Source: Patescibacteria group bacterium
GTDB lineage: Bacteria > Patescibacteriota > Patescibacteriia > UBA1558 > GWA2-36-10
Reading direction: 5' to 3'
Length of the DNA stretch: 64,000 nt
Assembly: GCA_018819405.1 (NCBI GenBank)
Contig: JAHJQF010000001.1
Coordinates: 290,097 to 354,096 of the forward strand
In this document: positions 584 through 16,063 of the stretch, one piece after another
Layout of the letters: every line of letters starts with the position of its first letter
How positions within the stretch are numbered: position 1 is the first letter of the stretch
Notes under the pieces: model-generated
What the model saw: the letters and a program-made list of their open reading frames with translations, nothing else
Told to the model about the DNA's origin: nothing
Databases searched by the model: none
Position numbers and translations under genes: made by a program

Positions 584-650
584 CAAAAAATTCCCAAACA
601 AAAAACAATCTCTAAAAGATTGTTTTATAATATGAATAGAAAATTCGATT

Positions 651-746
651 TCATACAACAGACAAGCGTATGCGAAGTCGTGATTGAGCCTATGTGGTAA
701 AATTCGCGTAGCGACCACATAGGCGAAAGAACGATTTGGGTGAGCG
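651..746. repeat. Site-A copy 1 (~95 bp: 5' arm CAACAGACAAGCGTATGCGAAGTC, variable covarying stem-loop, 3' box GATTTGGGTGAGCGG)
   Basis: Stem 688-697 (CCTATGTGGT) pairs with 713-722 (ACCACATAGG). The 3' box abuts the stop of minus ORF 749-1102. Confidence 0.8.
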
Positions 747-748
747 GA

Positions 749-1102
749 CTAAATATCTTCCATAATCATTTCTTCTACCGCACGTTGTAATTTAAATAAA
801 TCTATATTGTTTGTTTTAAAAGCAGGTGCAGGTTGATATACGGGATTTTTGAAATTAATTTTTTCTATATTTCCTTGCTCATCAAATTTAATATACCCTT
901 CTGTTAATGTGCTATCGGGGTCAACTCCATAATTATCTGATAAACCTTTGTGAAACTTAGAGGTTATAAATATAGTAAAATTTTCAGTAACAGAAAATAC
1001 CCAAGTCCGCTGTTCTCTATCAATATCTACTTTACGTAATTTTAATAGAGCCTTATAGTCTATTTTTTCTGGTGATGATGGATTTTCAAAATGTTCATTC
1101 AT
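749..1102 (-). CDS. hypothetical protein (array cargo)
   Basis: 117-aa ORF flanked by Site-A (3') and Site-B (5'). Confidence 0.5.
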   Translation of the reverse strand: MNEHFENPSSPEKIDYKALLKLRKVDIDREQRTWVFSVTENFTIFITSKFHKGLSDNYGVDPDSTLTEGYIKFDEQGNIEKINFKNPVYQPAPAFKTNNIDLFKLQRAVEEMIMEDI

Positions 1103-1125
1103 AGTATTTTATTTAGTCCGCGAAC

Positions 1126-1154
1126 CGCATACGCGGTGTTGGGTGATGTACGAC
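1126..1154. repeat. Site-B copy 1 (CGCGAACCGCATACGCGGTGTTGGGTGATGT)
   Basis: Reverse-complement of the Site-A 5' arm. Internal CCGC-ATAC-GCGG hairpin. Confidence 0.8.
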
Positions 1155-1168
1155 GAATTCCCAGAATT

Positions 1169-1570
1169 TTATTTATTAAAAGTTTGTTTTATTCTTTTTG
1201 CTATTTCTTCAGGATATAATAGAATATTATCTAAATTATCTAATTTTATCCATTCCAAATTATATTGGTTATTTGGATTATTTCTTCCAGTTTCAGGCCA
1301 ACCTAATTTAATTTTTCCTTCAAATGTTTTAGCTAAGAAATAATATCCGTAATGGTGCTCATCTTTATATTCCCAAAGTAATTTATCCAAAACTATGTCT
1401 AAATTAGTTTCTTCTTTTATTTCTCTAATAGCGGTTTCTTCAGATTTTTCGTTTTTTTCTATTGTTCCTCCAGGAAATGCATAATACTCGTTATCATTTT
1501 TAATTCTATGTATTAAAAGAATTTTTTCATCTTTGATTATAATTACTGCTGATCTTTTATGATATTGCAT
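1169..1570 (-). CDS. Nudix hydrolase
   Basis: Nudix box GGTIEKNEKSEETAIREIKEETNL (GX5EX7REUXEEXGU). Confidence 0.75.
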   Translation of the reverse strand: MQYHKRSAVIIIKDEKILLIHRIKNDNEYYAFPGGTIEKNEKSEETAIREIKEETNLDIVLDKLLWEYKDEHHYGYYFLAKTFEGKIKLGWPETGRNNPNNQYNLEWIKLDNLDNILLYPEEIAKRIKQTFNK

Positions 1571-1602
1571 AGTTTTAAAAAATTCTGGGAATGAGGAGTA
1601 TT

Positions 1603-1700
1603 TCGCCTAACAGACAAGCGTATGAGAAGTCACGAGTGACTGGAGGTGATAGAATCGCACGGAGTGCTATCACCGAAAGGAACGAGTGATTTGCGCGAAG
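1603..1700. repeat. Site-A copy 2
   Basis: CCTAACAGACAAGCGTATGAGAAGTC arm. Stem GGTGATAG (1645-1652) pairs with CTATCACC (1667-1674), loop AATCGCACGGAGTG. Box GATTTGCGCGAAG. Confidence 0.8.
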
Positions 1701-1713
1701 AGAAATAAAGTTT

Positions 1714-1753
1714 TTGCTTAATTATTGACTAATTACTATATAAATGATAGGGT
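1714..1753 (+). promoter_or_regulatory. putative promoter for ORF 1820-2146, with CTGGCTAGGCCAG palindrome at 1767-1781
   Basis: TTGCTT/TTGACT -35 candidates and a TATATA -10. Palindrome lies between promoter and RBS AAAGGAGGTG. Confidence 0.4.
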
Positions 1754-1819
1754 ATTTTATTAGTTCTGGCTAGGCCAGAGTAGTTCATTACTCTAAACCT
1801 CTGAAAGGAGGTGAAAAAT

Positions 1820-2146
1820 ATGTCTTCCAATTTGGTTGGTTTGAAACTCGATGGCTACACTGTCCAGAAGGTGTTCGAAGTCTTCAGGGTCGACGAAGAC
1901 GGCATGAAGGTCAAGTCAGTCGACTTCTTCATGGACGGTGGTGTAGCCACAGCTTGGACTCAAGGTCTGGCTGACCGCCACTTCCACAAGACCGTCGAAG
2001 TGCTCGTCATCAGCAACGGTGAAAGCCATTTCCTTTTCGGAGGAGAGGAAGTCAACATCCACGATGACACGAGTGCCCTTCTTCAGGTTCGACAGAAGGC
2101 TCTGTCCAAGCTGACTTCGGAAGAACGGGCTGTACTCGGCCTGTGA
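1820..2146 (+). CDS. hypothetical protein, high-GC, opposite strand to array
   Basis: ATG 1820 is 8 nt after AAAGGAGG. ~58% GC in a ~30% GC context. Own terminator at 2153-2191. Confidence 0.55.
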   Translation: MSSNLVGLKLDGYTVQKVFEVFRVDEDGMKVKSVDFFMDGGVATAWTQGLADRHFHKTVEVLVISNGESHFLFGGEEVNIHDDTSALLQVRQKALSKLTSEERAVLGL

Positions 2147-2152
2147 TCATTT

Positions 2153-2191
2153 GCCGCCTGGCCTGAAAACTGGGCGGCTCTTTTATTTTTT
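2153..2191 (+). terminator. rho-independent terminator
   Basis: GCCGCC-TGGCCTGAAAACTG-GGCGGC followed by a T-run. Confidence 0.65.
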
Positions 2192-2207
2192 AAAAAACTT
2201 TATTTCT

Positions 2208-2239
2208 CTTCGCCTCATACGCGGTGATAGATGATGACC
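2208..2239. repeat. Site-B copy 2 (variant CTTCGCCTCATACGCGGTGATAGATGATGACC)
   Basis: Shares the CATACGCGGTG core and the GATGAT/GATGT tail. Confidence 0.65.
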
Positions 2240-2251
2240 AATTCCATGGCG

Positions 2252-3004
2252 TTATAAATTATTAATTTTTTTATAGGTAGCTATACCCGTACAATGAAGT
2301 TGTTGTCCATCTAAGACATGGTCATACTTTATATTATTATTAGATATATATTCTATTAGCCAATTTTTGATGTCAGTATTTATAAATTTTAATAAATATT
2401 TAGTTTGGTTGTTTATGAAATTTATTATCTGTAGTGTCTCAACTTTTTTGCGACCTCTTTCATCAATATATGTTTTTTCTGGTCCATTACTATTTATCAT
2501 AGCAAATGACAATGGTTTCGTTCCAAATATGACTATTTGAGATTTGTAATGAATTATTTTTTCTCTTTGTTCTTTTAATTTGAAAATCCATTTTTTATTT
2601 TTGTCTAATATTTTTTTTAATGCAATGTCTATAGTAGGTTTTTTTTCTAACGATTTATATAAATCATGTATACTCATTTCTTGGTCTTGCGGATGAGCAG
2701 GGCCTGTGGGGGTTTTTAGATTTCTGGTATTTTTTGGCAATGTCTGCCATATTATATAAGCTATATCGTTTAGTAATATTCTTTGTCTTATTATAAAACT
2801 TTCTAGATCAGCTGCTATATTATAGTGGTTTGGTTCGTTTTTGTTAGTTTCAGAAATTATTCGATCGTAGTATAAAAAAAGTCTAGATAGTGACCAAAAA
2901 ATAGCATTTGTATTGAAATAATAATGTTTTTTGAAGTGTTGAAAGCCAAAATTGGTAAGCACATCAAAAATTGGCAATTCTAAATATTCATTTTTTCTTA
3001 TCAT
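2252..3004 (-). CDS. hypothetical protein (array cargo)
   Basis: 250-aa ORF with no recognisable motif. Confidence 0.5.
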   Translation of the reverse strand: MIRKNEYLELPIFDVLTNFGFQHFKKHYYFNTNAIFWSLSRLFLYYDRIISETNKNEPNHYNIAADLESFIIRQRILLNDIAYIIWQTLPKNTRNLKTPTGPAHPQDQEMSIHDLYKSLEKKPTIDIALKKILDKNKKWIFKLKEQREKIIHYKSQIVIFGTKPLSFAMINSNGPEKTYIDERGRKKVETLQIINFINNQTKYLLKFINTDIKNWLIEYISNNNIKYDHVLDGQQLHCTGIATYKKINNL

Positions 3005-3024
3005 ATATAATGGAATTGGTTTTC

Positions 3025-3120
3025 ATCTATCAGGCTAGTGTATGCGAAGTTCTGCTTGAATTTTATGCTAAAATAGCACGGAGTGCAAGCATAAAATGAA
3101 AAGTAGAATTTGGGTGGAGC
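3025..3120. repeat. Site-A copy 3
   Basis: Stem ATTTTATGCT pairs with AGCATAAAAT, loop AAAATAGCACGGAGTGCA. Box GAATTTGGGTGGAGC. Forms a ~195-bp composite with Site-B copy 3 that is duplicated at 14767-14962. Confidence 0.8.
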
Positions 3121-3186
3121 AGTGTTAGTTTAGTTTAAACTATATAAAAACAGATAAATATTACTTTACCTGTTCTTTGATATTGC

Positions 3187-3220
3187 TTCGCGAAACCGCA
3201 TACGCGGTGTTGGCTGATGT
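3187..3220. repeat. Site-B copy 3
   Basis: CGCGAAACCGCATACGCGGTGTTGGCTGATGT. Ends 2 nt before the stop of ORF 3222-4025. Confidence 0.8.
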
Positions 3221-3221
3221 T

Positions 3222-4025
3222 TTAATTAAATTTTGTCTTTAATTCTTCCAAAGTTTTTCGCATTAATTCATCTGCTTTTTTGCTTTTTTCTTGTATTTCT
3301 TCAATGGAGTTTGTTTTGTATAAATCTTCGATTTCCTGAACAACTTCTGGTGGCAAATCAACTGACGCATGTTTAAGACCTATGTTTGGCCACTGCGGAG
3401 AATAAAGAAGCCTCAATGCTTCAATAAGTTTGTCTAAAATTAGATCGTGATATATTTTGAGCGCATCAAGATAGTTTTCTCGTTTTAATTCTCGTTCTAG
3501 ACACATGTTACGAAGAGAAACTCGGGCTTCAATATTTTCGATTTGAGCTATAATATTTTTGCGTTCATTTTCTTCGCTTCCTGATTCAGTTTCTAAAATA
3601 CCTTTTTTGTCGAACAATGTGGTTTTACCCTGTGCTTTTAATTTCGTAGAGTCAGAGTATGTTTGCAGAGTAATATCGATAATTAAAAATTTTGATGTGC
3701 CCTGCACATGATAAAGCATTTTGGGCCAATCATATCCAGGTCGTGTATGTTCAAGTTTAAAATCAATATTCGACAATGCGGCTTCTATCGTTTGAATAAC
3801 GCTTTCTATATTTTCGTCTTCTATGACAAGACGTACATCGATATCAGAATATTCGTCCACGGTACCATGTACATCTGCTCCTTCAAGAAAAAAAGCAAAA
3901 ACAGATGAATTGCCTTCAAGAGCGCTATGAAGCTGATCAATAATTTCTTTTCTCTTCTCTATTGTATTTTCTGGTTTTTGTTCGTTTTCTTGCCCTATGT
4001 TTATAGGTAACTCGTTCTTATTCAT
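3222..4025 (-). CDS. nucleotidyltransferase-domain protein
   Basis: G-x(n)-DID motif (LEGADVHGTVDEYSDIDVRLV) typical of the Pol-beta-like NTase fold. Substrate unknown. Confidence 0.5.
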   Translation of the reverse strand: MNKNELPINIGQENEQKPENTIEKRKEIIDQLHSALEGNSSVFAFFLEGADVHGTVDEYSDIDVRLVIEDENIESVIQTIEAALSNIDFKLEHTRPGYDWPKMLYHVQGTSKFLIIDITLQTYSDSTKLKAQGKTTLFDKKGILETESGSEENERKNIIAQIENIEARVSLRNMCLERELKRENYLDALKIYHDLILDKLIEALRLLYSPQWPNIGLKHASVDLPPEVVQEIEDLYKTNSIEEIQEKSKKADELMRKTLEELKTKFN

Positions 4026-4045
4026 ATTTAAAATTTAATTAATAT

Positions 4046-4142
4046 TTCAGCTAACAGACGTGCGTATGCGAAGTCGTGACTGAGCGAATATGATAAAATT
4101 ATTTGAAATCATATTTGCGAAAGAATGATTTGGGTGAGCGAG
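4046..4142. repeat. Site-A copy 4
   Basis: AGCTAACAGACGTGCGTATGCGAAGTC arm. Stem AATATGAT pairs with ATCATATT. Box GATTTGGGTGAGCGAGCCC. Confidence 0.8.
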
Positions 4143-4151
4143 CCCTTTTTA

Positions 4152-4334
4152 TTATTTGTCTTTTTCTTCAGTAGGTGGCACATAAATAACATCTTTTTTA
4201 TTATTAGGATTTATGCCTTCGCTAATTAGGTAATCCTCGTGCTCTTTGTTAAGTTCAGAAACCTCTCTTGTAAAAATACGAAATCCGATATATGCCAGAG
4301 CAGGTACTATAGGTATAAGTAATTTCCAATCCAT
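4152..4334 (-). CDS. small membrane protein (60 aa)
   Basis: N-terminal TM helix. Flanked by Site-A and Site-B. Confidence 0.4.
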   Translation of the reverse strand: MDWKLLIPIVPALAYIGFRIFTREVSELNKEHEDYLISEGINPNNKKDVIYVPPTEEKDK

Positions 4335-4354
4335 ATTTTTTTGTTAATTATTTA

Positions 4355-4391
4355 GCTCGCGAACCGCATACGCGGTGATAGGTGATGTGAT
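4355..4391. repeat. Site-B copy 4
   Basis: AGCTCGCGAACCGCATACGCGGTGATAGGTGATGTGAT. Confidence 0.8.
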
Positions 4392-4409
4392 AAAAATTTT
4401 AATATTTTA

Positions 4410-5219
4410 TTACCAATAACCGTTTTGATTATTTTGCCTAGCATTCCTTTTTTTGAATTCTCTTTCTTCAATAGAATTATACAGCGCAGTTTTTAGGATT
4501 TTAATATCATTATTGTCTAGATAATTTAGAAAATCATCAATGGTCTTTTTTGATACAACATCAATTAGAAAATATTCTGGCTTGTCTTTATATGTGTATT
4601 CAACTTCAATTTCAAAATTATTTTTAATATCTTCATATTTATTACCATCACTAGCCGCTCGTTTAAATTTAGTGAAGTCAGGGACTAATATTAGTGGATA
4701 ATTTACAGTGTTGTAGTTTCCACCTCTTTTATTGGAGTAAAAGAGACTTGCATGCATGACTTCGTTTTTTGCTTTATCCAAGATCTTGTTATCATTTTCT
4801 GTACTAAATTCCTTTACGGCTTCATTATCTTTTAAATAATGGTGCATCTTATTTTCGTAATTTAGGTAAAAATCTTCTTGATTTTGAAGGATGGGATTAT
4901 TTTTTGCTAATTGTTTAGACTTTATTGGATCTTTATCTAAAAACCAAAATACTATATGTGGTTTAATATACTTACACTCTATTATTAATCTTATCGTTAA
5001 TGTCTCTGTAGAATTACTGAACATACCACCGCCAACTTGAATATTTTTTTCAGCAATTATATCAATTTCTCTAGGTTTATTTTCAACAGGATCATTATAG
5101 TGTGGGCTATTTGTCACTGTCCATTCTTTTTCTTCTAATAATTTTGAAATTGTTAAGTGAAAGTCATGTCCACTGTCTCCCATTATTTTTTCTATGATTT
5201 TACCAGTATCTTTTTCCAT
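4410..5219 (-). CDS. hypothetical protein, possible PD-(D/E)xK nuclease fold
   Basis: REIDIIAEK ... IIECKY resembles a D...ExK nuclease motif. Weak. Confidence 0.4.
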   Translation of the reverse strand: MEKDTGKIIEKIMGDSGHDFHLTISKLLEEKEWTVTNSPHYNDPVENKPREIDIIAEKNIQVGGGMFSNSTETLTIRLIIECKYIKPHIVFWFLDKDPIKSKQLAKNNPILQNQEDFYLNYENKMHHYLKDNEAVKEFSTENDNKILDKAKNEVMHASLFYSNKRGGNYNTVNYPLILVPDFTKFKRAASDGNKYEDIKNNFEIEVEYTYKDKPEYFLIDVVSKKTIDDFLNYLDNNDIKILKTALYNSIEEREFKKRNARQNNQNGYW

Positions 5220-5234
5220 AAAATTTTTATTATT

Positions 5235-5333
5235 TCATCTATCAGGACAGGGTATCCGAAGTTCCGAAGCGAATAGCGTGCTAAACTTTCTGCGAAGCAG
5301 AGCACGCAAATGAGCGAGGAATTTGGATGAGCG
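5235..5333. repeat. Site-A copy 5
   Basis: CATCTATCAGGACAGGGTATCCGAAGTTCC arm. Stem GCGTGCT pairs with AGCACGC. Box GAATTTGGATGAGCGGG. Confidence 0.75.
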
Positions 5334-5353
5334 GGTAAGAAAAATTATCCTTA

Positions 5354-5641
5354 TTAATTCCTAACAAATGAGCCTATTAAAGTAAGGATAGCCGTTATTG
5401 CATATAGAATAGAAAAGATTGTTCCGTGGGCATTTTTGATTTTCTTTTTTAAAATCAAATAAGGTATTATTTCAAGTATGAGTGTCATAAAAAGTATGCC
5501 AATAATGCCACCAAGTAATTGGAAGATATCCGAACCATTTATTGCCAGCGAAGCAATAACGGATATAATTAAGCCACTATATGCAAGGATTTTTACATAC
5601 ATAGGTGACTCTTTGAGGTTTAAATTTAGTCCCACTTTCAT
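5354..5641 (-). CDS. small membrane protein (95 aa)
   Basis: Three predicted TM helices. Confidence 0.45.
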   Translation of the reverse strand: MKVGLNLNLKESPMYVKILAYSGLIISVIASLAINGSDIFQLLGGIIGILFMTLILEIIPYLILKKKIKNAHGTIFSILYAITAILTLIGSFVRN

Positions 5642-5680
5642 AATTTTATATTAATTATTTTATTTGTAAAATTTTTCTTA

Positions 5681-5716
5681 CCTGCGAATCGGATACCCGA
5701 TGTTGGGCGATGTACA
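5681..5716. repeat. Site-B copy 5 (covarying variant TCGG-ATAC-CCGA)
   Basis: CCTGCGAATCGGATACCCGATGTTGGGCGATGTACAG. The 4-bp hairpin stem has switched from CCGC/GCGG to TCGG/CCGA while staying complementary. Confidence 0.75.
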
Positions 5717-5725
5717 GATTTTCCT

Positions 5726-6076
5726 TTAAATACCCCATTCTGATATTAGTTTTAAAATGGATGGCCATTGAGAAGTGAAGACCATAGCAATGATCACAAT
5801 TATCACACCTATAATGATTAAGCCGACGGGTCGTTCAAACCACGTTTTCATAGCATTCAAGTCCGACATAACCTTAGATGTTTTTATGTAGAGCGCAGGA
5901 TTGCTTCCAGAATTATTGATATATCCATTTGCTTTTAGAAACTCGTAGTAGATTTTTTGCGCATCACTACTACTTACATTTAAGCCATTTTGAAGGTCTT
6001 GAAAATTAAATCCAGCATCAGGTGTTTTTGAAACCCATTTAAGAATCTTTTTTATTGGAATATTTGCTATTTTCAT
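5726..6076 (-). CDS. hypothetical protein with C-terminal TM helix
   Basis: 116-aa ORF. Confidence 0.45.
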   Translation of the reverse strand: MKIANIPIKKILKWVSKTPDAGFNFQDLQNGLNVSSSDAQKIYYEFLKANGYINNSGSNPALYIKTSKVMSDLNAMKTWFERPVGLIIIGVIIVIIAMVFTSQWPSILKLISEWGI

Positions 6077-6102
6077 AAATTACACAATAAGGAAAATCTG
6101 TA

Positions 6103-6203
6103 TTTCGCCTAACAGACGTGGATTGCCGAAGTTGTGAGAGAGTGAAGTGGCTAAACTTTCGGCGGAGCCGAGCCACGAAACGAACGAGCAATTTGGATGA
6201 GCA
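6103..6203. repeat. Site-A copy 6
   Basis: CGCCTAACAGACGTGGATTGCCGAAGTTG arm. Stem GTGGCT pairs with AGCCAC, loop AAACTTTCGGCGGAGCCG. Box CAATTTGGATGAGC. Confidence 0.75.
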
Positions 6204-6205
6204 AA

Positions 6206-6694
6206 TTAATAAAAATATTTATTTAATACAAATAAACATTCAGGATGAAATTTTCCACCGTTGCTAATCATTTTTTTTATTTCCTCTTTTGTGAAAAATT
6301 GTACTTTTGTAACTTCATTAGGGTCAATATTAAATTCCCCATTATATTTTCCTTTAAAGAAAGTGCTAAAATGTTTGCGCCCATCATCAAGTTCAATGTA
6401 ATGTTTGCCCAATAATTCTAATTCAGTTTTGACACCAATTTCTTCAAAAAGCTCTCTTTTAGCACATCCAAAATAGTCTTCCCCAGAATCTACATGACCA
6501 CCGCCACTACAGTCCCAATAGGAAGGGTAGTTATAACTATTTTCCGAACGTAATTGGAGAAGAATTTCATCTTCATCATTTATAATCATAATATTAGACA
6601 CTCTCAAAATATCTGATTTTTTAGCAGACTTTCTATCGATTATTTTTAGTACTTTATCATTTTTGTCTACTACTTCTACTAGTTCTAATTTCAT
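6206..6694 (-). CDS. Nudix hydrolase
   Basis: Nudix box GGGHVDSGEDYFGCAKRELFEEIGV. Confidence 0.7.
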   Translation of the reverse strand: MKLELVEVVDKNDKVLKIIDRKSAKKSDILRVSNIMIINDEDEILLQLRSENSYNYPSYWDCSGGGHVDSGEDYFGCAKRELFEEIGVKTELELLGKHYIELDDGRKHFSTFFKGKYNGEFNIDPNEVTKVQFFTKEEIKKMISNGGKFHPECLFVLNKYFY

Positions 6695-6735
6695 ATTAAA
6701 TAATTAAGAGTTTTTTAATAAATATTTTTATAAAT

Positions 6736-6795
6736 TTGCGAATCGGCAATCCTGTGTTGGGCGACCCGATAGGGCGGAGCGAAGCGGAGAGTAAG
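6736..6795. repeat. Site-B copy 6 with appended G-rich tail
   Basis: TTGCGAATCGGCAATCCTGTGTTGGGCGAC followed by CCGATAGGGCGGAGCGAAGCGGAGAG. Confidence 0.65.
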
Positions 6796-6802
6796 TATTA
6801 AT

Positions 6803-7333
6803 TTATAATTTTATATTTTCTTTTATATCGCCAAGCGCTTTTTTGTGTTCTTCATATTTATTCTCCCAAAAATCAATATTGCTTAAAGCAAGTTGTTTAA
6901 TTGGCTCTTGTTTTATCCCGTCTTTCATAATGTTTTCTTTATTCCATTTAACTTGATTATTAAGATAATTTTCTGCAGTTAGGGAAAAATCGGAAAAAAA
7001 GTTTTTGAGTTTTGTAATATTTTCATGTTTGAGGAATTTATATACACTTCCGTCTTGTAACATGGAGTCTATTGAATAATTAAGAATTTTAGATAATTGA
7101 TAATATCCAAAATATCTAAATAGTATATCACCATTGACATGATTTCTATATACTTTAAATTCCTCAAGTATTTTTTCGACGTGTGTAATATTGTAGTCTA
7201 TTTCAAACCGGAAATTTTTTTTTCGATTTTTTTCACTAACTTTGTTTTTTATTACATCCAATAAGATATTTATTATACTGCCTGCAATTACACCGGCTAA
7301 TACCCCAAGGAACATATTCCAAAAAGTTTCCAT
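6803..7333 (-). CDS. hypothetical protein with N-terminal TM helix
   Basis: 176-aa ORF. Confidence 0.45.
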   Translation of the reverse strand: METFWNMFLGVLAGVIAGSIINILLDVIKNKVSEKNRKKNFRFEIDYNITHVEKILEEFKVYRNHVNGDILFRYFGYYQLSKILNYSIDSMLQDGSVYKFLKHENITKLKNFFSDFSLTAENYLNNQVKWNKENIMKDGIKQEPIKQLALSNIDFWENKYEEHKKALGDIKENIKL

Positions 7334-7367
7334 ATTTTTTTATTAATAAAATTTAAATTAATACTTA

Positions 7368-7405
7368 TTTCGCCTAACAGACAAGCGTATCTGATGTTTG
7401 TCCGC
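7368..7405. repeat. Site-A copy 7 (truncated; 5' arm only)
   Basis: CGCCTAACAGACAAGCGTATCTGATG present. No stem-loop or 3' box before the stop of ORF 7414-8331. Confidence 0.6.
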
Positions 7406-7413
7406 CACTGAAT

Positions 7414-8331
7414 CTAAGCTGTGTGCTTTTTATATGATTGCTCTATAAGGGTCAATATATAAGAAGTTTCATCTTTAGGAGTTATTACAATTTCATAATC
7501 ACCATTTCCCCAATGGCCAATATTTGATACATCTTTAGCAATGCCCTTTGGATCATTTAGTTGTCCCTTTTTTAGATTTATCCAAATTTTAATCTTTGAT
7601 TTTTTTAGTTCAAAATCTACAAAATTTGTATCAGCAATAAATCCTATATAATATTTTCTTGGTCTTACAGTTATATTGTCAGATATGTTTAAAATTTTTT
7701 CCTTTATTTCTTCATATTTATTTTTTACCTCTTCCGGCAGACTTTCTAAATGTTTTTCTTCCGAGTAAATTTTTATTTCTCTGCTAACTTTTTCTACGAC
7801 ATCACTTTTAGAGCTTATTTTGTTTATTGATTCGCTAGATTCAGGGGATTGTAGTTGATTATATAATATTGTATTATTTTCAAATTTTGATATCTCCCAT
7901 AATTCAATTGGTAGATCCTTAAAATTTATTGCTTGTTTTTGGTATTTTGTAAATTCAGGGGAAATAAAAATTACACGAGATTGAGACCAGTCTACATCTT
8001 CTCGTTTTAAGCTCTGATTTTTACTTTCGTTATATTCAAGTATAAAATCAGCCTTGTTATTGAGTAATAAAGAAAGATAAGCATAACCTTGATCTATTAC
8101 GCTAAAATTTCTATCCTTTTTGTATTCTATTATAACAAAAGCCTTTAGTTCATTATCAAAGGCCAGCGAATCTATTCTCAATCCATTTAGAGCAACTTCT
8201 GACTTGATAAAATCTAAGGAAAAAATTTCATTAAGATTTTTTTCAGTTGTTGACTGTATTTCCCGCTCGTTTTTAAAAGCGGATTCTTTTATTTTTTTGA
8301 GATTTGTATGAGATGTATCAAATATTGGCAT
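7414..8331 (-). CDS. hypothetical protein, possible PD-(D/E)xK-like
   Basis: LRIDSLAFD...VIIEYKKD resembles a D...ExK core. Weak. Confidence 0.4.
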
Positions 8332-8366
8332 AGAAATATATTATTATATTATTAGCGGACAAATAT

Positions 8367-8408
8367 GGGCGAAGCGTAGCGTAGCCAGATACGCGGTGTT
8401 AGACGCTG
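8367..8408. repeat. Site-B copy 7 preceded by G-rich segment GGGCGAAGCGTAGCGTAGCC
   Basis: AGATACGCGGTGTTAGACGCTG. Overlaps the stop codon of ORF 8399-8824. Confidence 0.6.
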
Positions 8409-8824
8409 TTGTCCTCGTTTTCTTTATATGGTTTTTCCAACTTATTCATTTCGTCTATTAATTGTTCTTTACTAAAATTTGATACCTCTTTGTGTTTTCT
8501 TTGAATTAACAAACTAAATATTCCCATAATTAAGAACAACAAAAAAAGCCAATAACATAAAGTTTTATTTGGGTGGTCTTTTTCCAAAATTGTTAGCCCT
8601 CCTATTAGAGCGGATAAGGCTATACCAAAAAAAGCCGGCCCTAGAACTTGCCAAAGGCTTGTTGGTGATTTTATTTTATCTGCCATGTTTTTTAATCTAT
8701 TCCAATCAGGCCAAAACATAGGAAAGCCGCGCCTTGGTTCAGGTGATTTTATCTGACAAGATTCAGAAAATTCTAAATCGCTATCATTATTATTTTTTAT
8801 CTGGCTCTTCGGCATTCTTTTCAA
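8399..8824 (-). CDS. membrane protein
   Basis: 141 aa with two TM helices. Confidence 0.45.
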   Translation of the reverse strand: MKRMPKSQIKNNNDSDLEFSESCQIKSPEPRRGFPMFWPDWNRLKNMADKIKSPTSLWQVLGPAFFGIALSALIGGLTILEKDHPNKTLCYWLFLLFLIMGIFSLLIQRKHKEVSNFSKEQLIDEMNKLEKPYKENEDNSV

Positions 8825-9071
8825 TTAAATCAAGTTTTAAGGCATTAAAAAATAGGGTATTACCACAATTTCGGCACGTTGCATAGACTACAGGAGTTAT
8901 GTTTGATTTTCCTCCTATAACCATGTTGCCTCCATGGAATTCTCTTAACTCAAATATTATATCTGATATATCCCATTCATTGTGTTTGCAAACAGAACAG
9001 GCCTTTGGCGCTGGCCAAGATTCTTGCAGTTTTTCCAACAATTTTTTTTGTTGTTCTTTGTTTAATTTCAT
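8790..9071 (-). CDS. zinc-ribbon small protein
   Basis: CSVC...CRNC four-cysteine motif. Overlaps the downstream ORF by 35 nt (co-module). Confidence 0.45.
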   Translation of the reverse strand: MKLNKEQQKKLLEKLQESWPAPKACSVCKHNEWDISDIIFELREFHGGNMVIGGKSNITPVVYATCRNCGNTLFFNALKLDLIEKNAEEPDKK

Positions 9072-9100
9072 ATTTATATTTTATCATTAGAGGACAATTG

Positions 9101-9219
9101 CGTCTAACAGACAAGCGTATCTGAAGTTTTCTGCGAAACGAAGCTGTTATAATTATTGCGCGAAGTGGAGCGTAGCGCAAGAGCAGCGGAGTTGAGTAGA
9201 AAATTTGGGTGAAGTAGGA
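9101..9219. repeat. Site-A copy 8
   Basis: CGTCTAACAGACAAGCGTATCTGAAGTT arm. Stem TTGCGC pairs with GCGCAA. Box AAAATTTGGGTGAAGTAGG. Confidence 0.7.
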
Positions 9220-9243
9220 GAGAAAAAGCCTATTTTAAAGATA

Positions 9244-9272
9244 TTGACATATTATAGATATTCTGGTATTTT
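9244..9272 (+). promoter_or_regulatory. sigma70-like promoter (TTGACA-17-TATTTT) for ORF 9326-9517
   Basis: TTGACA at 9244-9249. RBS GAGGAGG lies before ATG 9326. Confidence 0.5.
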
Positions 9273-9325
9273 ATATTGTTCGTTCCCTGCATTATTCACC
9301 ACCAACCTAGTGAGGAGGACAGCTC

Positions 9326-9517
9326 ATGTCAGTATCAGAGGAGAGGAAATTGCTCGAGAAGATCATCCGAGCGAAGGTTCGCTTGGAAGACATGAAGGTC
9401 GAGCACAAGGAGGCTTGCCCTGCCGAAGATCCATTGATGGCAGGACAGTGCACCTGTGGTGCCGATACCCTGAACGGCCAGATCAACGCCGTTCTCCGCG
9501 AACTCTCTCTCGACTAG
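9326..9517 (+). CDS. small high-GC protein (63 aa), opposite strand
   Basis: Strong RBS, ~58% GC, CxC...C motif. Terminator at 9541-9571. Confidence 0.5.
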   Translation: MSVSEERKLLEKIIRAKVRLEDMKVEHKEACPAEDPLMAGQCTCGADTLNGQINAVLRELSLD

Positions 9518-9540
9518 TGGGACAGACTCAGTCCTGTCTC

Positions 9541-9571
9541 GGCGCTCTGCAACTGCGGGGCGCTTTTTTTT
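9541..9571 (+). terminator. rho-independent terminator
   Basis: GGCGCTCTGCAACTGCGGGGCGC followed by T9. Confidence 0.6.
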
Positions 9572-9585
9572 ATTTTTCTCTCCTA

Positions 9586-9616
9586 CTTCACCAGATACGC
9601 GGTGTTAGCTGATGTA
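9586..9616. repeat. Site-B copy 8
   Basis: CTTCACCAGATACGCGGTGTTAGCTGATGTA. Confidence 0.7.
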
Positions 9617-9663
9617 TTCCTTTTCTAGAATTTACTTTTTAAATATTTAAATTTCTTTTTTCA

Positions 9664-9710
9664 ATTTGGGCGAAGGGCAGAGGGGATTAAGGGGTGAATG
9701 CCCGAGCCCA
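9664..9710 (+). repeat. G-rich element copy 1 (GGGCGAAGGGCAGAGGGGATTAAGGGGTGAATGCCCGAGCCC)
   Basis: Four G-tracts with loops of 7 nt or fewer, a canonical G-quadruplex motif, on the plus strand. Starts with the AATTTGGGCGA box like the Site-A 3' end. Confidence 0.6.
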
Positions 9711-9716
9711 AAAAAG

Positions 9717-12290
9717 TTATCTATTTTCAGAAAAACGTATATCTCTTGCATGCAACATTGTTTTTAGGCTTTCAGTAAATTTTAAGGATTCTTTTAGTGC
9801 TTCCTTCTTTGTATCTCCTTTTGGAATTGGAATTAAGAAGTATTCATTCCAAGCGTCTGTTTTTAATTCAGGTTGACTGGCTGTCTGAGCTAAATAATAT
9901 CCTTGTTTTTTGCATAAATCGCTTCTTAACGAATACCATAACAGCATACTTTCTTCTAAATTTTTTGTTTTAAATACCCAAAAGCCAGATGTACAAATAA
10001 AATTTTCCATTTCTTTTGGTACCAGCATAACAGTTCCTCGTGAACTAATGTTTATCGCCATTAGAACATCATTTTCTTGAATTTTGTATTGTCCACGCGA
10101 TGGTAGGTTTTCAAAATTGTCAGTTAAGTAGTTTATTGGCAAGCCATAGTCAGTTACGTCACTAATTTCAATATAATGAAATTGTTTGTTTTTAAATTCA
10201 TTTTTTTGCAGGCCATTAATTTTAGCTCTTTTTTTTACGTCTATACCTTTTTTAATTTCAATTTTATCTTTGTCGGCGAGCTCTAAAATTTTATTCCAGG
10301 TATTTTTTAACTCAGGCGCATAGAAAAAAGCATCTAATCTATCAATTATTAATTCTTCTGGTGGAGTAATCCAAATTTGTTCCGGACATTCTAAGTTTTC
10401 ATTTTTGTTTTGATTTTCTTTAATTGTTGGTTTCAGTATCCCTGTTCGTTTCCATTCTAAATAAGATACTAAAATATCAGTTAAATTATTACGCTCTAAG
10501 GTGTCTCTGAGGGAGTTGTCGTGTCCAATATTATTACTTATAGACATAAAAATGTGACTTTGTCGTTCATCATCATTTTGTTTTTTCCGTAGATGTAAAA
10601 TTGACGTTTTTATATTTGCCTTTGCCTTGAAGAATGCGTTAAATGGTAAAGAATGAACTCCTAAAATTATAAATTTATCTACTATCCAGTTTCGAACATT
10701 TTGTTGATTTTTCCCGTTTAATACTGTGTCGTCAAGAACCAGTAATATTTCGCCACCTGATTTCAGTAATTTCCAATATCGATCCAAAAATAAAATATTT
10801 GATTTTGCACTTTTCATCCCGTCTGCAATATGGCGCTGGTCTAATATATCTGTTTCATCTTCATTATTTCTGTCATACACCATGCTAAACGGAGGGTTTG
10901 TTAGTACCAAGTCAAAGCTATTTTCCATGATTTTTGTTTGCATTGCTTCAATTTCAGATTTTCTTTCATCTTTCATGTCTTCTGCAATTTTTGGAAAATC
11001 GTCCAATCCATCGCCGTGAAATATGTGACTACCACCATCGCCGTGTAAATACATATTAATTCTAGCAATTCTTGCAACACGTTCATTTGCTTCAATGCCA
11101 AATAATTGTTCATTACAGATCTTGTTTTTAATTATTTCTTTTTCTGTATTACTAAAGCGTGTATCATCTCTCAATCCAGATAATAAATAAGCCATAACTT
11201 CAATGAGAAAACCAGCTGTTCCTGCACATGCATCCATAACTTTTGGCGGATTTTTAATATCCACATTACATAAGGCAATTCGGGTCATAAAGTCAACAAC
11301 TGGTCGGGGTGTAAAATATTGCCCCAATGCTCGTCCTCTTACGGCAGCGTTTAAGAACACTTCAAACATTCGTCCGTTAAGGTCTTCATCAATTGAGCTA
11401 AGATTAATTTTTTCAAATATTTTTATTAGATCTTGGCAGGTGGAGGCACTCAATTTAAAAGTTTCATTTTCTTCAAAAATTCTACGTTTTTTGTCTCTAT
11501 GTATTGCAGCTTCTAAATCGTCTCGTAATTTATTAAAAAGAATGTCTCGCACAGGATGTTTTGATGTTGATTTTTGAGCATCTAACCACTCGCTGGTAAG
11601 TGGAATTTTATATGTTGGGATGTCTTCATTATTTTGTCCTCTTTTTTTATCCTCATTAATCTTAATGAATATAAATTTACAAAATTCAAAAAAAGCATCA
11701 GTAGGGCTAAGTTTTTCCCTCTTCCAAATTAAATCATGCGTTTGCTGAAAGATTTTATTCAATTCGTCAGGCGAAACGATTTCAAATTTTAATCCATCAC
11801 CGTGCACTACTTCATCAGCAGTTTTATACTTGATATAACTTCTTAGATTGGTATAGGCTGGTGAACCACTGGCAAAATCTGATAACTGTAATGTTACGAT
11901 TGGTGTACTGCTGTCCCATTTGAATAACGAAGTTATAAAACCATTACTGATTAATAACCACTTGACCTTTTCTTTGTCTAATTTATCTCGGTTATAACTA
12001 AGAGCATAGCTTGCAGCTTGTCCCCATGCTTCGTTTATGGATTTATTTGGATCCTTAGCCTCTACTACTACTTTTGCATTTCCATTGCTACCAAGTAATA
12101 AAAAATCTATTTCAATTTTTATTTTTTTGGATCCATCATTAGCCATCAAATTAAGGAGTCTTTTTTTGGGGATAACAGATTGATCTGTATAGCCGAGATC
12201 ATTAAATAATTTTGCCAAGAGCCTAGTTTCTACCTCGGCTTCGGTTTTTAAGTCTTTTAAATTAAGTTGAAATAGAGTACTTTGGCTCAT
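9717..12290 (-). CDS. Type IIG-like restriction-modification enzyme / N6-adenine DNA methyltransferase with HsdR-N-type N-terminal domain
   Basis: Motif I DACAGTAGFL, motif IV LTNPPF, an HsdM-like helical domain, an N-terminal Type-I-R N-terminal-like domain and a long C-terminal extension. 857 aa. Confidence 0.7.
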   Translation of the reverse strand: MSQSTLFQLNLKDLKTEAEVETRLLAKLFNDLGYTDQSVIPKKRLLNLMANDGSKKIKIEIDFLLLGSNGNAKVVVEAKDPNKSINEAWGQAASYALSYNRDKLDKEKVKWLLISNGFITSLFKWDSSTPIVTLQLSDFASGSPAYTNLRSYIKYKTADEVVHGDGLKFEIVSPDELNKIFQQTHDLIWKREKLSPTDAFFEFCKFIFIKINEDKKRGQNNEDIPTYKIPLTSEWLDAQKSTSKHPVRDILFNKLRDDLEAAIHRDKKRRIFEENETFKLSASTCQDLIKIFEKINLSSIDEDLNGRMFEVFLNAAVRGRALGQYFTPRPVVDFMTRIALCNVDIKNPPKVMDACAGTAGFLIEVMAYLLSGLRDDTRFSNTEKEIIKNKICNEQLFGIEANERVARIARINMYLHGDGGSHIFHGDGLDDFPKIAEDMKDERKSEIEAMQTKIMENSFDLVLTNPPFSMVYDRNNEDETDILDQRHIADGMKSAKSNILFLDRYWKLLKSGGEILLVLDDTVLNGKNQQNVRNWIVDKFIILGVHSLPFNAFFKAKANIKTSILHLRKKQNDDERQSHIFMSISNNIGHDNSLRDTLERNNLTDILVSYLEWKRTGILKPTIKENQNKNENLECPEQIWITPPEELIIDRLDAFFYAPELKNTWNKILELADKDKIEIKKGIDVKKRAKINGLQKNEFKNKQFHYIEISDVTDYGLPINYLTDNFENLPSRGQYKIQENDVLMAINISSRGTVMLVPKEMENFICTSGFWVFKTKNLEESMLLWYSLRSDLCKKQGYYLAQTASQPELKTDAWNEYFLIPIPKGDTKKEALKESLKFTESLKTMLHARDIRFSENR

Positions 12291-12379
12291 ATTGGTTTAA
12301 TTTAGTTTTTATACTATTTATAATACAAGTATAATTCATTTAAAATAAAAACACAATTCTGAGATATAAATAAATCGTT

Positions 12380-12435
12380 TCCGAAGCGTAGCGGAGGAAA
12401 CATCTGCTCCTGCCGACAGGCAGGTTCCCCTCCTA
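12380..12435. repeat. GC-rich nested hairpin (GGAGG...CCTGCCGACAGGCAGG...CCTCC)
   Basis: Perfect inner hairpin CCTGCC-GACA-GGCAGG nested in a GGAGG/CCTCC outer stem. Begins with the CGAAGCGTAGCGG segment shared with 8367-8386. Confidence 0.5.
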
Positions 12436-12514
12436 AAAAAAGAAAAAGAAATTTGTAATTTTTAAAAATAATTGTTTGTTAAATGCCGAAAAAGAAAAGG
12501 AATATTTCAGCTAA

Positions 12515-12603
12515 CAGACGTGCGTATCTGAAGTTCCGAAGCGAGTGGCGTGGTAAAATTGCGCGGAGCGCACCACGCAAACGAGCGAGGAATTTGGGTG
12601 AGT
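12515..12603. repeat. Site-A copy 9
   Basis: AGCTAACAGACGTGCGTATCTGAAGTTCC arm. Stem GCGTGGT pairs with ACCACGC, loop AAAATTGCGCGGAGCGC. Box GAATTTGGGTGAGTAAG. Confidence 0.8.
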
Positions 12604-12606
12604 AAG

Positions 12607-13065
12607 TTAAATAAAATCTTTATACTGCTCTTCAATAGGAGGATTGGAAAAATAAGCCAATACACTATTACCAGATTCCATTAATTCTATCATTTCAAAA
12701 CCGTCTCTAGGTATTAATTTAAAATTATTTTTGCCCAAATTTTCTTTTTTAAAATTTTCGTAATTTTTCACTGTAAAATCTGCATCGCCCCTTTCTTTTT
12801 TATTAGGATCAAATTCTCTAATTTTTAATACTCTAATAGTTCTTCCTATAGGCTCATTTAATATGAATATAGGGCCACTGTATGTGTCTTTCAATTTTTC
12901 ACCAAATTTTTTTACTTCTTCAATCAATTCCTTATATTCTTCTTCAGTTTGGGCAAAAATACAAGCCCAAGTCGCTATAGCACCATGTTCTTTGGTATAT
13001 TTATCTTTAAGAGCAATAGCTCTCATTAGTATTTCTTGAACGATAATTTTTTTTAAATCTACCAT
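12607..13065 (-). CDS. hypothetical protein
   Basis: 152-aa ORF. Confidence 0.45.
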   Translation of the reverse strand: MVDLKKIIVQEILMRAIALKDKYTKEHGAIATWACIFAQTEEEYKELIEEVKKFGEKLKDTYSGPIFILNEPIGRTIRVLKIREFDPNKKERGDADFTVKNYENFKKENLGKNNFKLIPRDGFEMIELMESGNSVLAYFSNPPIEEQYKDFI

Positions 13066-13087
13066 AGTTTTATAAAGATTTTATTTA

Positions 13088-13124
13088 ACTTACGAACCAG
13101 ATACGCGGTGATAGGTGATGTACA
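13088..13124. repeat. Site-B copy 9
   Basis: ACTTACGAACCAGATACGCGGTGATAGGTGATGTAC. Confidence 0.75.
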
Positions 13125-14643: not shown

Positions 14644-14766
14644 ATTGTTTAGTTGTTAGTTAATATTATATTTATTTATTTCAACCCCCTAACTAAAATA
14701 GATAAAAATCAAATTTGTATAATTTAAATTTTAGCTTATCTTAGCCAAAAAGGAAAAATGTATGTC

Positions 14767-14868
14767 ATCTATCAGACGTGCGTATGCGAAGTTCTACTTG
14801 AATTTTATGCTAAAATAGCACGGAGTGCAAGCATAAAATGAAAAGTAGAATTTGGGTGGAGCTGTTTT
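14767..14868. repeat. Site-A copy 10 (duplicate of copy 3)
   Basis: Identical stem-loop ATTTTATGCT-AAAATAGCACGGAGTGCA-AGCATAAAAT. Confidence 0.8.
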
Positions 14869-14929
14869 AGTTTAGTCTAAACTATATAAAAACAGATAAA
14901 TTTTACTTTACCTGTTCTTAAATAATGCT

Positions 14930-14962
14930 TCGCGAAACCGTATACGTAGTGTTGTCTGATGT
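14930..14962. repeat. Site-B copy 10 (degenerate: CGCGAAACCGTATACGTAGTGTTGTCTGATGTCG)
   Basis: Position-equivalent to Site-B copy 3 inside the duplicated composite. Confidence 0.65.
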
Positions 14963-15597: not shown

Positions 15598-15664
15598 AAA
15601 AAATTCCCAAACAAAAAACAATCTCTAAAAGATTGTTTTATTATATGAATAGAAAATTCGATTT

Positions 15665-15703
15665 CATACAACAGACCGCCATATGCGAAGTTGCGCAGGC
15701 CGC
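15665..15703. repeat. Site-A copy 11 (truncated variant CATACAACAGACCGCCATATGCGAAGTTGCGCAGGCCGCC)
   Basis: Arm present, no 3' box. Confidence 0.55.
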
Positions 15704-15722
15704 CTACCTTTAACTTAGGCAC

Positions 15723-15968
15723 TTAGTTAATTATAATAGCAATGAATTGTAAACAAAATCCTATACTATATAGAGTGAAGGCTAATAATCCAACCATTTT
15801 ATCTTTTAGATGTTTAATTTGTGTATAATTTCCTTTATCGTCCATTTTTATAATATAATCATCATTAACATTTCTAGTAATGTTAAGATAGGAAATTAAC
15901 AATATTAAAGAAGCTCCAGTATTTATTATTAAGCCAATTAGGTTTAGTATATTTGAAGAATTAGTCAT
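15723..15968 (-). CDS. small membrane protein (81 aa)
   Basis: Two TM helices. Confidence 0.45.
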   Translation of the reverse strand: MTNSSNILNLIGLIINTGASLILLISYLNITRNVNDDYIIKMDDKGNYTQIKHLKDKMVGLLAFTLYSIGFCLQFIAIIIN

Positions 15969-16026
15969 ATTTTATTAGTTAGTTAAAGAATTAGGCCAAG
16001 CAATTTTGGTGAAGCGCCTGACAAGG

Positions 16027-16063
16027 CGCTGAACCGCATATGGGGTGTTAGCTGATGTAAATA
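16027..16063. repeat. Site-B copy 11
   Basis: GCGCTGAACCGCATATGGGGTGTTAGCTGATGTAAAT. Confidence 0.7.

Follow-up and report, generated by a model that had tools for sequence, protein, structure and literature searches.

The 64-kb window analysed here (64,000 nucleotides of contig JAHJQF010000001.1 from a Patescibacteria group bacterium) contains a cassette array on its + strand, from window position 1 to 16801, the left end of which lies beyond the window edge. The array is built from two repeats, Site-A and Site-B, which occur in strict alternation on the + strand and make up 11 A/B units in the window. Site-A is ~100 nt long and starts at its 5' end with ATTTCNNCTAAC-AGACAA-GCGTATGCG-AAGT, and Site-B is ~30 nt long and reads GAAC-CGCATACGC-GGT-GTTGGGT-GATGT. 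Two kinds of interval alternate between them: L-modules, which run from A_i to B_i, and R-modules, which run from B_i to A_i+1. Nearly every interval of either kind contains one AT-rich open reading frame (ORF), and all AT-rich ORFs are on the - strand. The A/B sites of the window span 201-1043 nt and enclose an ORF in 9 of 11 cases. The original prediction for this DNA, a covarying stem-loop in Site-A, had placed the array at 651-12603; its stems are indeed there, but that range is too small, as units are also present at 14762-14962 and 15661-16058.

To the right of the array, and divergent from the cassettes, is a gene for a tyrosine recombinase of 288 amino acids (16863..17729, +); there is no second tyrosine recombinase in the 64-kb window. 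The protein matches Pfam Phage_integrase (3e-38) and scores 228.6 against NCBIfam NF040815 (XerA_Arch / integron integrase; cut-off 220). Against the integron integrase model TIGR02249 it scores 203.8, under the cut-off of 265, and the match is in two pieces. Comparison with known structures gives a similar picture: XerA from P. abyssi (PDB code 4a8e) aligns with the recombinase end to end in one stretch, whereas the alignment with V. cholerae IntI4 (2a3v) falls into two blocks, with query residues 181-208 (28 residues) opposite IntI4 170-238 (69 residues). The AlphaFold model (predicted local distance difference test score 82) has no helix between residues 195 and 213. The top Foldseek match is IntI4 (2.5e-16), followed by archaeal XerA structures (3e-15 and 4.5e-15), and the C-terminal GIKSPLD resembles the IntI tail. 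The catalytic set R-K-H-R-H-Y is complete, with R146, K171, H237, R240, H263 and Y272 invariant in 20 homologues. Judged from its sequence and predicted fold, the recombinase is XerA/IntI-like, with complete catalytic residues and without the IntI-specific I2 domain.

Patescibacteria commonly encode homologues of the recombinase (55-91% identity), and wherever sequence upstream of the gene exists, the same array is found on the same strand (loci L002, L004, L007, L008, L010, L012, L014, L016, L026, L037, L041 and L063, of which L016 and L037 contribute motif matches plus one weak model match each and nothing further). Homologues at 45-48% identity outside this clade, from Brevinematales and metagenome contigs, have no arrays.

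Site-A and Site-B as two halves of one fold

A 9-nt L box which follows the 6-nt spacer of Site-A is the reverse complement of a 9-nt box in the next Site-B to the right. The sites of the window were located by independent motifs and not via this complementarity, and the L boxes of A_i and B_i nevertheless have only 3 mismatches in 99 window positions (permutation p ~5e-6, for the window only). The L box of A_i does not match the Site-B on its left. The two boxes change together, as seen in the pairs GCGTATGCG/CGCATACGC, GCGTATGAG/CTCATACGC, GGGTATCCG/CGGATACCC, GGATTGCCG/CGGCAATCC, GCGTATCTG/CAGATACGC and CCATATGCG/CGCATATGG. In a gap-free alignment of 37 units from 10 genomes, the L boxes comprise 15 different sequences, are 99.7% paired and show double changes in 7 of the 9 pairs; these units were chosen with at most one L-box mismatch, so the 99.7% is partly by construction, which is not true of the box diversity. 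The innermost C·G pair is invariant in the 37 units, and AAC/GTT is present, with ATC/GAT variants. None of the 11 window units has a bulged L-box base. In some lineages (L010 and L016), the Site-A arm of the L box has a single additional base (GGGT[G]ATCCG and GGAT[T]AAGCG), reminiscent of attC extrahelical bases but situated on the opposite arm; compact units of ~85 nt or extra-base L boxes occur at 2444-2531 and 3737-3824 of L010 and at 3226-3400 of L016.

The 7-nt R boxes (RYYYAAC/GTTRRRY) match across the B-to-A interval instead: there are 8 mismatches between B_i and A_i+1, against 27 between A_i and B_i (p ~5e-6). This is the signature expected if the crossover takes place within the R box. 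The R-stem complementarity of B_i and A_i+1 runs on for 19-38 nt, and the A-to-B ORFs are closed by a further stem of 9-37 bp. With inverted stems around each interval, every gene of the array lies in the loop of a long hairpin, and the bases of neighbouring hairpins abut via fixed linkers of 6 and 3 nt.

The complete architecture is seen in 'empty' units, which make up 12 of the 37, have 90-170 nt between their L boxes and measure ~140-225 nt overall with 6-nt flanks. Folds of 14 empty units calculated with DNA parameters, including window unit 10, display an R stem, an internal loop, an L stem and a three-way junction which bears a P2/P3 and a P4 hairpin. Non-empty units have an ORF of up to 2.7 kb in place of the P4 tip. 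Each A/B pair folds as two arms about a 6x3 internal loop plus a three-way junction. Site-A alone was considered as a complete attC and rejected, as its 3' tail (TTTGGGTGAGCG) is unpaired with its own 5' boxes; the partner is Site-B.

The stem-loop of the original prediction is confirmed, and forms a single branch (P3) of this larger A/B structure. All eight covarying Site-A stems that had been listed are in place, and their covariation exceeds that of shuffled and slid controls. We aligned 12 copies, 6 from the window and 6 from other genomes, with MAFFT and without fitting to a structure, excluding the near-duplicate at 14762. RNAalifold recovers the predicted stem (P3a) from this alignment, with 5 of its 7 pairs changed on both sides, plus an enclosing stem, P2, for double-sided changes in 11 of 17 pairs. 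Cells are paired in 94% of cases, versus 70% after shuffling and 33-44% with the partner slid, and there are 52 double-change cells versus 17 expected, a number reached by 0 of 500 shuffles. The duplication that connects copies 3 and 10, named at the outset as a possible source of the signal, does not account for it: the covariation persists in this unfitted alignment, against shuffles, with the near-duplicate left out. A covariance model built from the 12-copy alignment detected 43 copies in 11 Patescibacteria genomes. In these, P2 is 98.7% and P3a 95.4% paired, with 181 double-change cells versus 53 expected; the 43-copy alignment is fitted to the model and hence leans to structure, whereas the unfitted 12-copy result is independent of that.

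What had been described as a conserved loop is conserved in sequence but is not a loop. It consists of an unpaired hexamer, TAWAAT, in 40 of 43 copies (TAAAAT in 21, TATAAT in 14, others in 5), and then a third covarying stem, a small one of 3-5 bp that ends in a GNA triloop (GGA in 15, GAA in 7 and GTA in 2 of the folds of the 43 copies). GNA triloops are a motif of high stability in DNA. The flanks, AAGT and ATTT, are conserved as predicted, and are explained as the strands of P2 (AAGT.../...ATTT), which covaries, encloses P3a and is stacked on the L helix. The small-scale covariation reported for Site-B turned out to be a by-product. The bases of the local Site-B hairpin pair perfectly with Site-A in 9 of the 11 window units, and the hairpin itself (CCGC-ATAC-GCGG) was rejected as a functional stem, since no more than 4 of 11 window copies, and 12 of 37 copies in all, have it intact.

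The hexamer lies at the junction of P3a and P3b (in the window, for example, at 12554-12559, 3069-3074 and 5282-5287). With its first T base-paired and AWAAT single-stranded, it is arranged like a fork-junction -10 promoter element on the + strand. From its sequence and position, TAWAAT could be a promoter in single-stranded DNA, a primer site or a protein landmark. Runs of the mini-hairpin motif (GCGAAGC / GCGTAGC / GCGGAGC) are also found outside Site-A, at 6770-6790, 8365-8385 and 12378-12400 of the window, where they adjoin Site-B copies or precede a large methyltransferase ORF.

The 11 units, all on the + strand, vary in their content. In unit 1 (648..1149), R'' (653-659), the spacer (660-665) and L'' (666-674) are followed by the P2/P3 hairpin (675-737) with P3a at 689-698/714-723, an outer stem arm (744-755), a loop ORF (749-1102, -), and finally L' (1126-1134), GGT and R' (1138-1144). 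Unit 2 (1600..2237) displays compensatory change between L'' (GCGTATGAG, 1618-1626) and L' (CTCATACGC, 2214-2222); P3a is at 1645-1652/1667-1674, the outer stem arm at 1695-1715 (21 bp), and the loop content is a GC-rich gene (1820-2146, +). Unit 3 (3020..3220) is an empty unit of 201 nt without an ORF, with P3a at 3060-3069/3088-3097. Its + strand folds into R stem, internal loop, L stem, P2-P3 hairpin and P4 hairpin, at a folding energy of -29.9 kcal/mol (z -3.9) versus -25.5 for the - strand. Unit 4 (4044..4388) has L'' at 4062-4070, L' at 4365-4373, P3a at 4087-4094/4108-4115 and a loop ORF at 4152-4334 (-). In unit 5 (5232..5713), L'' (GGGTATCCG) is at 5250-5258, L' (CGGATACCC) at 5690-5698, P3a at 5276-5282/5301-5307 and the loop ORF at 5354-5641 (-); the L stem, P2/P3 and the outer stem are all present in the minimum-energy fold of its 495-nt + strand (z -5.2).

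Unit 6 (6102..6767) has L'' (GGATTGCCG) at 6120-6128, L' (CGGCAATCC) at 6744-6752 and P3a at 6147-6152/6171-6176, and its loop contains a NUDIX ORF (6206-6694, -) closed by an inverted repeat of ~25 bp. Unit 7 (7367..8409; L'' 7385-7393, L' 8386-8394) is without the P2/P3 branch and has an extra stem (TTTGTCCGC/GCGGACAAA); its loop ORF (7414-8331, -) is a PADLOC PDC-S18 defence candidate. A variant hairpin with its stem at 9156-9161/9175-9180 is present in unit 8 (9097..9615), where the loop contains a GC-rich gene (9326-9517, +). Unit 9 (12504..13121) has P3a at 12548-12554/12572-12578, a 23-bp outer stem arm at 12602-12624 whose partner lies before 13098, and a loop ORF at 12607-13065 (-). 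Unit 10 (14762..14962) is empty and a near-duplicate of unit 3, with its stem at 14802-14811/14830-14839 and a decayed L' (2 mismatches). Unit 11 (15661..16058), like unit 7, is without the P2/P3 branch; L'' (CCATATGCG) is at 15679-15687, L' (CGCATATGG) at 16035-16043 and the loop ORF at 15723-15968 (-).

Folded strand, dif-like core and crossover point

The departures from Watson-Crick pairing reveal which strand folds. Across 30 true R stems, the mismatches read on the + strand are G·T in 60 cases, A·C in none and other in 37; beyond the conserved first 12 nt, the corresponding numbers are 8, 0 and 12. In the L helix, 7 of 7 departures from standard pairs are G·T, with one more cell (of 333) non-standard, and the outer stems have 7 G·T versus 3 A·C. 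A large share of the G·T excess is due to conserved positions: of the 30 R stems, 29 have T·G at position 11 of the R arm and 27 have T·T or G·T at position 10, and P2 has a conserved G·T wobble in 41 of 42 copies, such that a T·G wobble occupies the second outer base of both arms (R arm and P2). These conserved wobbles would be A·C or A·A in the - strand or in cassette mRNA, and therefore the folded strand is the + strand: the DNA strand opposite the cassette ORFs, called the 'bottom strand' in integrons, and not the mRNA. Folding both strands as single-stranded DNA, a check proposed with the original prediction, found the + strand more stable than the - strand in 14 of 14 empty units.

Orientation is equally uniform. 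The Site-A hairpins are on the recombinase strand, upstream of the recombinase gene, in 43 of 43 cases plus a further 7 of 7, and none was detected in ~230 kb of unrelated DNA. Across 11 genomes, 0 of 50 hairpins are inverted or on the - strand, and there is no inverted AT-rich ORF.

Between the last cassette ORF and the recombinase gene lies an attI-like, dif-like site of 28 bp (16774..16801, -), GGTGCACAAAC-ACACTG-TTAGCTGAAAT in 11-6-11 arrangement, made of a conserved arm and an orphan R box. The first cassette supplies the R arm (+ strand ATTTCAGCTAA). In 15 loci, the recombinase-proximal arm and the spacer are conserved and two variable R-arm bases differ, as expected if the R arm is that of the most recently inserted cassette. 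The site matches the arms of E. coli dif (GGTGCGCATAA-TGTATA-TTATGTTAAAT, sequences from PMC3025954) at 16 of 22 positions, the highest agreement in the window. In 8 related loci the homologous site likewise outscores the rest of its locus, and it reaches 18 of 22 in L007 and L015. A candidate promoter reading into the cassettes, TTTACA-17-TACGAT (16809..16837, -), is a consensus match only. Over the array, GC skew turns from negative to positive, unlike the pattern of a terminus; the array itself distorts the skew, and only 64 kb are visible.

The A/B fold has a comparable core. In its R arm, ATTTCNNCTAA is paired with TTRGNNGATGT. In its L arm, the 9-bp L box sits on P2, and ATTT together with Site-B CNNATAC rebuilds a second ATTTC... 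arm: ATTT (the P2 3' strand) followed by CGCATAC (the start of the Site-B box) reads ATTTCGCATAC, close to the R arm ATTTCGCCTAA. With its two 11-bp arms, the fold is a mimic of a dif-type core site. Read in the dif frame, Site-A has a 9-bp and Site-B a 6-bp spacer.

The crossover point was located by junctions. One cassette end, GATTTCATACAA|C (the right end of a GC-rich gene cassette, ...GAAAATTCGATTTCATACAAC), is joined to three partners: AGACAA-GCGTATGCG at 660, AGACCG-CCATATGCG at 15673, and the attI of L012 (AGCTTG-TTTGTGCAC). One end with three partners places the crossover at or beside CTAA|C, which is the arm/spacer boundary in the dif frame and the same point as the integron G|TT. 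Single modules can also be followed between genomes: an L-module with a 109-residue ORF is common to L063, L004 and L010 at 86-91% identity, and the homology extends from just after R'' to ...L'-GGTG, with the R'' boxes and both neighbours all different.

An integron-like platform and its rivals

We propose, at a probability of about 0.6, that a Site-A and the Site-B after it each supply half of a single site, which acts as folded single-stranded DNA, in a Xer-type, integron-like cassette platform resembling CTXφ attP(+). A circular or imported single strand comprising one L-module and one R-module would fold into a dumbbell, both arms of which would be perfect because R'' meets its own R'. 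The Xer/IntI-like recombinase would bind the two arms, cut the + strand at CTAA|C and exchange it with the duplex dif-like site beside its gene. Replication would resolve the junction, as in integron attC x attI and CTXφ attP(+) x dif (PMC7790495), and the unit would be added at the recombinase-proximal end with the target site regenerated. With one L-module and one R-module per event, the strict A,B,A,B order would follow, as would the pairing of L with the right neighbour and of R with the left. To the structure, strand, covariation, junction positions and protein nature described above, this scheme adds catalysis by this protein, exchange of a single strand and a source of single-stranded DNA, all of which we infer.

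The original prediction held that such covariation is exactly what integron attC sites show. The resemblance is considerable: both are recombination sites of a cassette array that keep their structure while the sequence varies, with R''/R' boxes of AAC...GTT type, covarying L''/L', an unpaired centre, a variable distal structure and a folded strand opposite the cassette ORFs. In both, each cassette's R box matches the start of that cassette, a divergent integrase gene with attI stands at one end, and the cargo is small, diverse genes including defence genes. The word "exactly" does not hold, however. The attC is compact (~57-141 nt), one per cassette and downstream of one ORF, whereas here the site is split in two repeats 90-2700 nt apart, with a three-way junction, and often holds a gene. 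Asymmetry here is in the central loop (6 versus 3 nt), on the inferred cut arm, and not in extrahelical L-box bases, of which the window has none; R stems reach 19-38 bp; two module kinds alternate and reassort singly; and the recombinase is without I2.

The CTXφ attP(+) hairpin integrates at dif via XerCD (PMC7790495). Integrative mobile elements exploiting Xer (IMEX) of the CTXφ type share with our locus two inverted dif-like halves (~90-170 nt apart in empty units) which fold in single-stranded DNA to a dif mimic with a mismatched centre, a Xer-type enzyme without I2, a double-stranded dif-like target and tandem accumulation at that target. They differ in that here single promoterless cargo genes are found and no phage or plasmid genome that replicates as single-stranded DNA, a dozen or more units are present per array, the recombinase gene is beside the site, the arms covary freely and the TAWAAT / GNA-hairpin branch has no counterpart. 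The course of attP(+) integration, as given here, is in part that reportedly described by Val et al. in 2005.

Several points weigh against our proposal. All of the results are computational. The recombinase is without I2, which is thought necessary for single-strand recombination: the I2 helix is held responsible both for it and for blocking the second strand exchange (PMC7790495). The extra bases (6 versus 3 nt, and the extra G or T in some lineages) are on the inferred cut arm, opposite to the situation in canonical attC. Long single-stranded stretches would be needed for loops that reach 2.7 kb; within the integrated array, perfect R stems compete with the imperfect R pairing of A_i and B_i; and the - strand likewise folds well. 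A dif match of at least 16/22 occurs ~1.15 times per shuffled 64-kb window, and the weight we give to the match rests on its position, its register and its recurrence in relatives. Site-B alone, as double-stranded DNA, is also 11-6-11 and dif-like. Finally, the aligned sequences indicate that modules are reassorted singly, at both junction types, which one crossover per site does not predict. Such swaps might occur by a full two-strand exchange between two hairpins, with the tips swapped, which an I2-less enzyme would perhaps permit; they might also come from further B x B events on duplex sites, or from homologous recombination.

A more specific form of the proposal, which we regard as possible and hold tentatively, is a natural integron based on Xer/dif. 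The recombinase would be the cell's own (possibly only) Xer and the adjacent site its dif, with cassettes on hairpin-forming single strands captured without I2, in a system widespread in Patescibacteria which would be either a living relative of the Xer-like integron ancestor or the integron principle invented independently a second time. In integron research, attC recombination is held to have arisen when a Xer-like ancestor acquired the I2 helix, and no intermediates are known (PMC7790495). The present locus joins folded, covarying, strand-specific sites with an enzyme that has no I2 and is equally close to IntI and to archaeal XerA. If this enzyme recombines these hairpins, the question of integron origin becomes directly testable in a natural system. 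Structure-specific recombination would then use other landmarks, such as the conserved T·G wobbles, the 6x3 loop and the stacked three-way junction, and the arrays would be a major route by which the small genomes of the candidate phyla radiation (CPR) gain genes, including defence genes and a diversity-generating retroelement. In the searchable literature, outside which most subscription journals lie, we found neither cassette arrays or integrons described for CPR nor an integron-like system without I2.

Among the alternatives we considered, a double-stranded system akin to the dif modules (pdif) of Acinetobacter plasmids is unlikely, though less so than the others. Site-A and Site-B would be ordinary duplex Xer sites in alternating orientation, between which modules would move by A x A and B x B events or through cointegrates, and the hairpins would be incidental. 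The likeness to dif modules is close: there too, site orientation alternates, two classes of module flanked by the same arms are obliged to alternate (the logic of C-modules and D-modules), single modules are replaced between relatives, and Xer-type sites carry toxin-antitoxin and accessory cargo (PMC13141974). Exchange of single modules at both junction types, a Xer-like recombinase without I2, the 11-6-11 Site-B and the dif-like attI would all fit. However, dif modules are double-stranded sites with equal 6-bp spacers on plasmids which use host XerC and XerD, and the locus studied here is chromosomal, with a single adjacent recombinase and with spacers so unequal (9 bp in Site-A, 6 bp in Site-B) that the duplexes are not equivalent. 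Module-specific arms covary over 9-38 bp, far past a protein footprint, and pairing is strand-specific: the 60:0 ratio of G·T to A·C and the conserved T·G wobbles would be meaningless in duplex DNA. Dif modules are also observed to invert (PMC13141974), whereas the 50 hairpins and the AT-rich ORFs described above are all in one orientation.

We consider it very unlikely that the stem-loops act in RNA, as 3' untranslated region (UTR) or intergenic structures of the cassette transcripts (terminators, stabilisers or processing sites), a reading which the original prediction had also allowed. In - strand transcripts the hairpins directly follow the ORFs on the 3' side, most pairs of P2 and P3 are Watson-Crick and could thus form in mRNA, and P4 hairpins in some empty units are terminator-like. 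The wobbles disfavour this explanation, as G·T on the + strand becomes A·C in the mRNA. Furthermore, distances of up to 2.7 kb separate the partners, which have whole ORFs between them, R-box identity tracks cassette junctions, and GNA triloops are a DNA motif. Searches of Rfam returned nothing at gathering thresholds in the whole window, and only chance-level matches (E > 0.1) in 1-17000.

A canonical integron which is merely divergent, with true attC and true IntI, is hardly credible. It would explain the RYYYAAC/GTTRRRY-type boxes and their R/L logic, the divergent integrase with its adjacent attI, the promoterless cassettes in one orientation, the IntI-like GIKSPLD tail and the top Foldseek match. 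It does not explain the absence of the IntI-specific domain (28 residues versus 69 in IntI4, and no extra helix in the model), the sub-threshold TIGR02249 score (203.8 against 265), or bipartite sites of 201 to >1000 nt which hold ORFs and, in the window, have no extrahelical L-box bases. Invertible segments or elements resembling miniature inverted-repeat transposable elements, in which each ORF would be a DNA switch or a transposon remnant, would account for the inverted repeats of 9-38 bp that bracket every ORF but are highly improbable, given that there is no orientation polymorphism and no - strand hairpin in 11 genomes, no target-site duplication and no transposase, and that the linkers at which the repeats of adjacent modules meet have fixed lengths of 6 and 3 nt.

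Related loci and cargo

Many of the contigs that encode a related recombinase break 100-260 nt upstream of its gene (the starts of L001, L005, L009, L011, L013, L015 and L062), and the contig of the closest relative begins 105 nt upstream. Breaks at this place are expected if the array is repetitive and variable. The arrays evidently break assemblies at the recombinase gene and are probably under-reported in metagenome-assembled genomes.

In L044, the locus of a homologue at 48% identity without an array, a palindromic repeat (GCGAAGTACTTCGTAT) is present just upstream of the gene, at 9649-9674 and 9914-9939; from its sequence and location, it may be that enzyme's own site. We also considered a viral origin of the array and rejected it: a Site-B 16-mer returned 29 single matches in IMG/VR, about the estimated chance number and none with a Site-A hairpin, and a 20-base Site-A pattern had no match in IMG/VR.

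The array carries small GC-rich genes on the + strand at 118-531, 1820-2146, 9326-9517 and 15114-15548, with ~55% GC in an array of ~30% GC. Similar genes are found in L012 (9450-9749) and L063 (5713-6333 and ~1770-2070). They are antisense to the other cassette ORFs and have their own strong sigma-70-type promoter, Shine-Dalgarno sequence and intrinsic terminator; L012 has the same promoter, 5' UTR and terminator frame around a different GC-rich ORF. The GC-rich genes have no Pfam match, with no homology search made beyond that, and may be stabilising or highly expressed cassettes.

Other cargo is larger. The ORF in the hairpin loop of unit 7 (7414-8331, -) is a full-length match to PADLOC PDC-S18 (E 8e-131), and the ORF at 9717-12290 (-) encodes an N6-adenine methyltransferase of 857 residues, of type I/IIG kind. 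In L002 (Ca. Nomurabacteria, GCA_020632415.1), the attI-adjacent module (6994-9922) holds a diversity-generating retroelement, with RVT_1 at 8853-9839, bAvd at 8455-8808 and a 134-nt repeat pair at 7798-7931 and 8314-8447; this retroelement appears to move as cassette cargo in L002. A 46-nt G-rich repeat (GGGCGAAGGGCAGAGGGGATTAAGGGGTGAATGCCC) lies just to the right of two Site-B copies, at 9656-9701 and 13175-13220 of the window, at the 3' ends of large - strand ORFs, and is present in another genome too, at 3556-3674 of L002.

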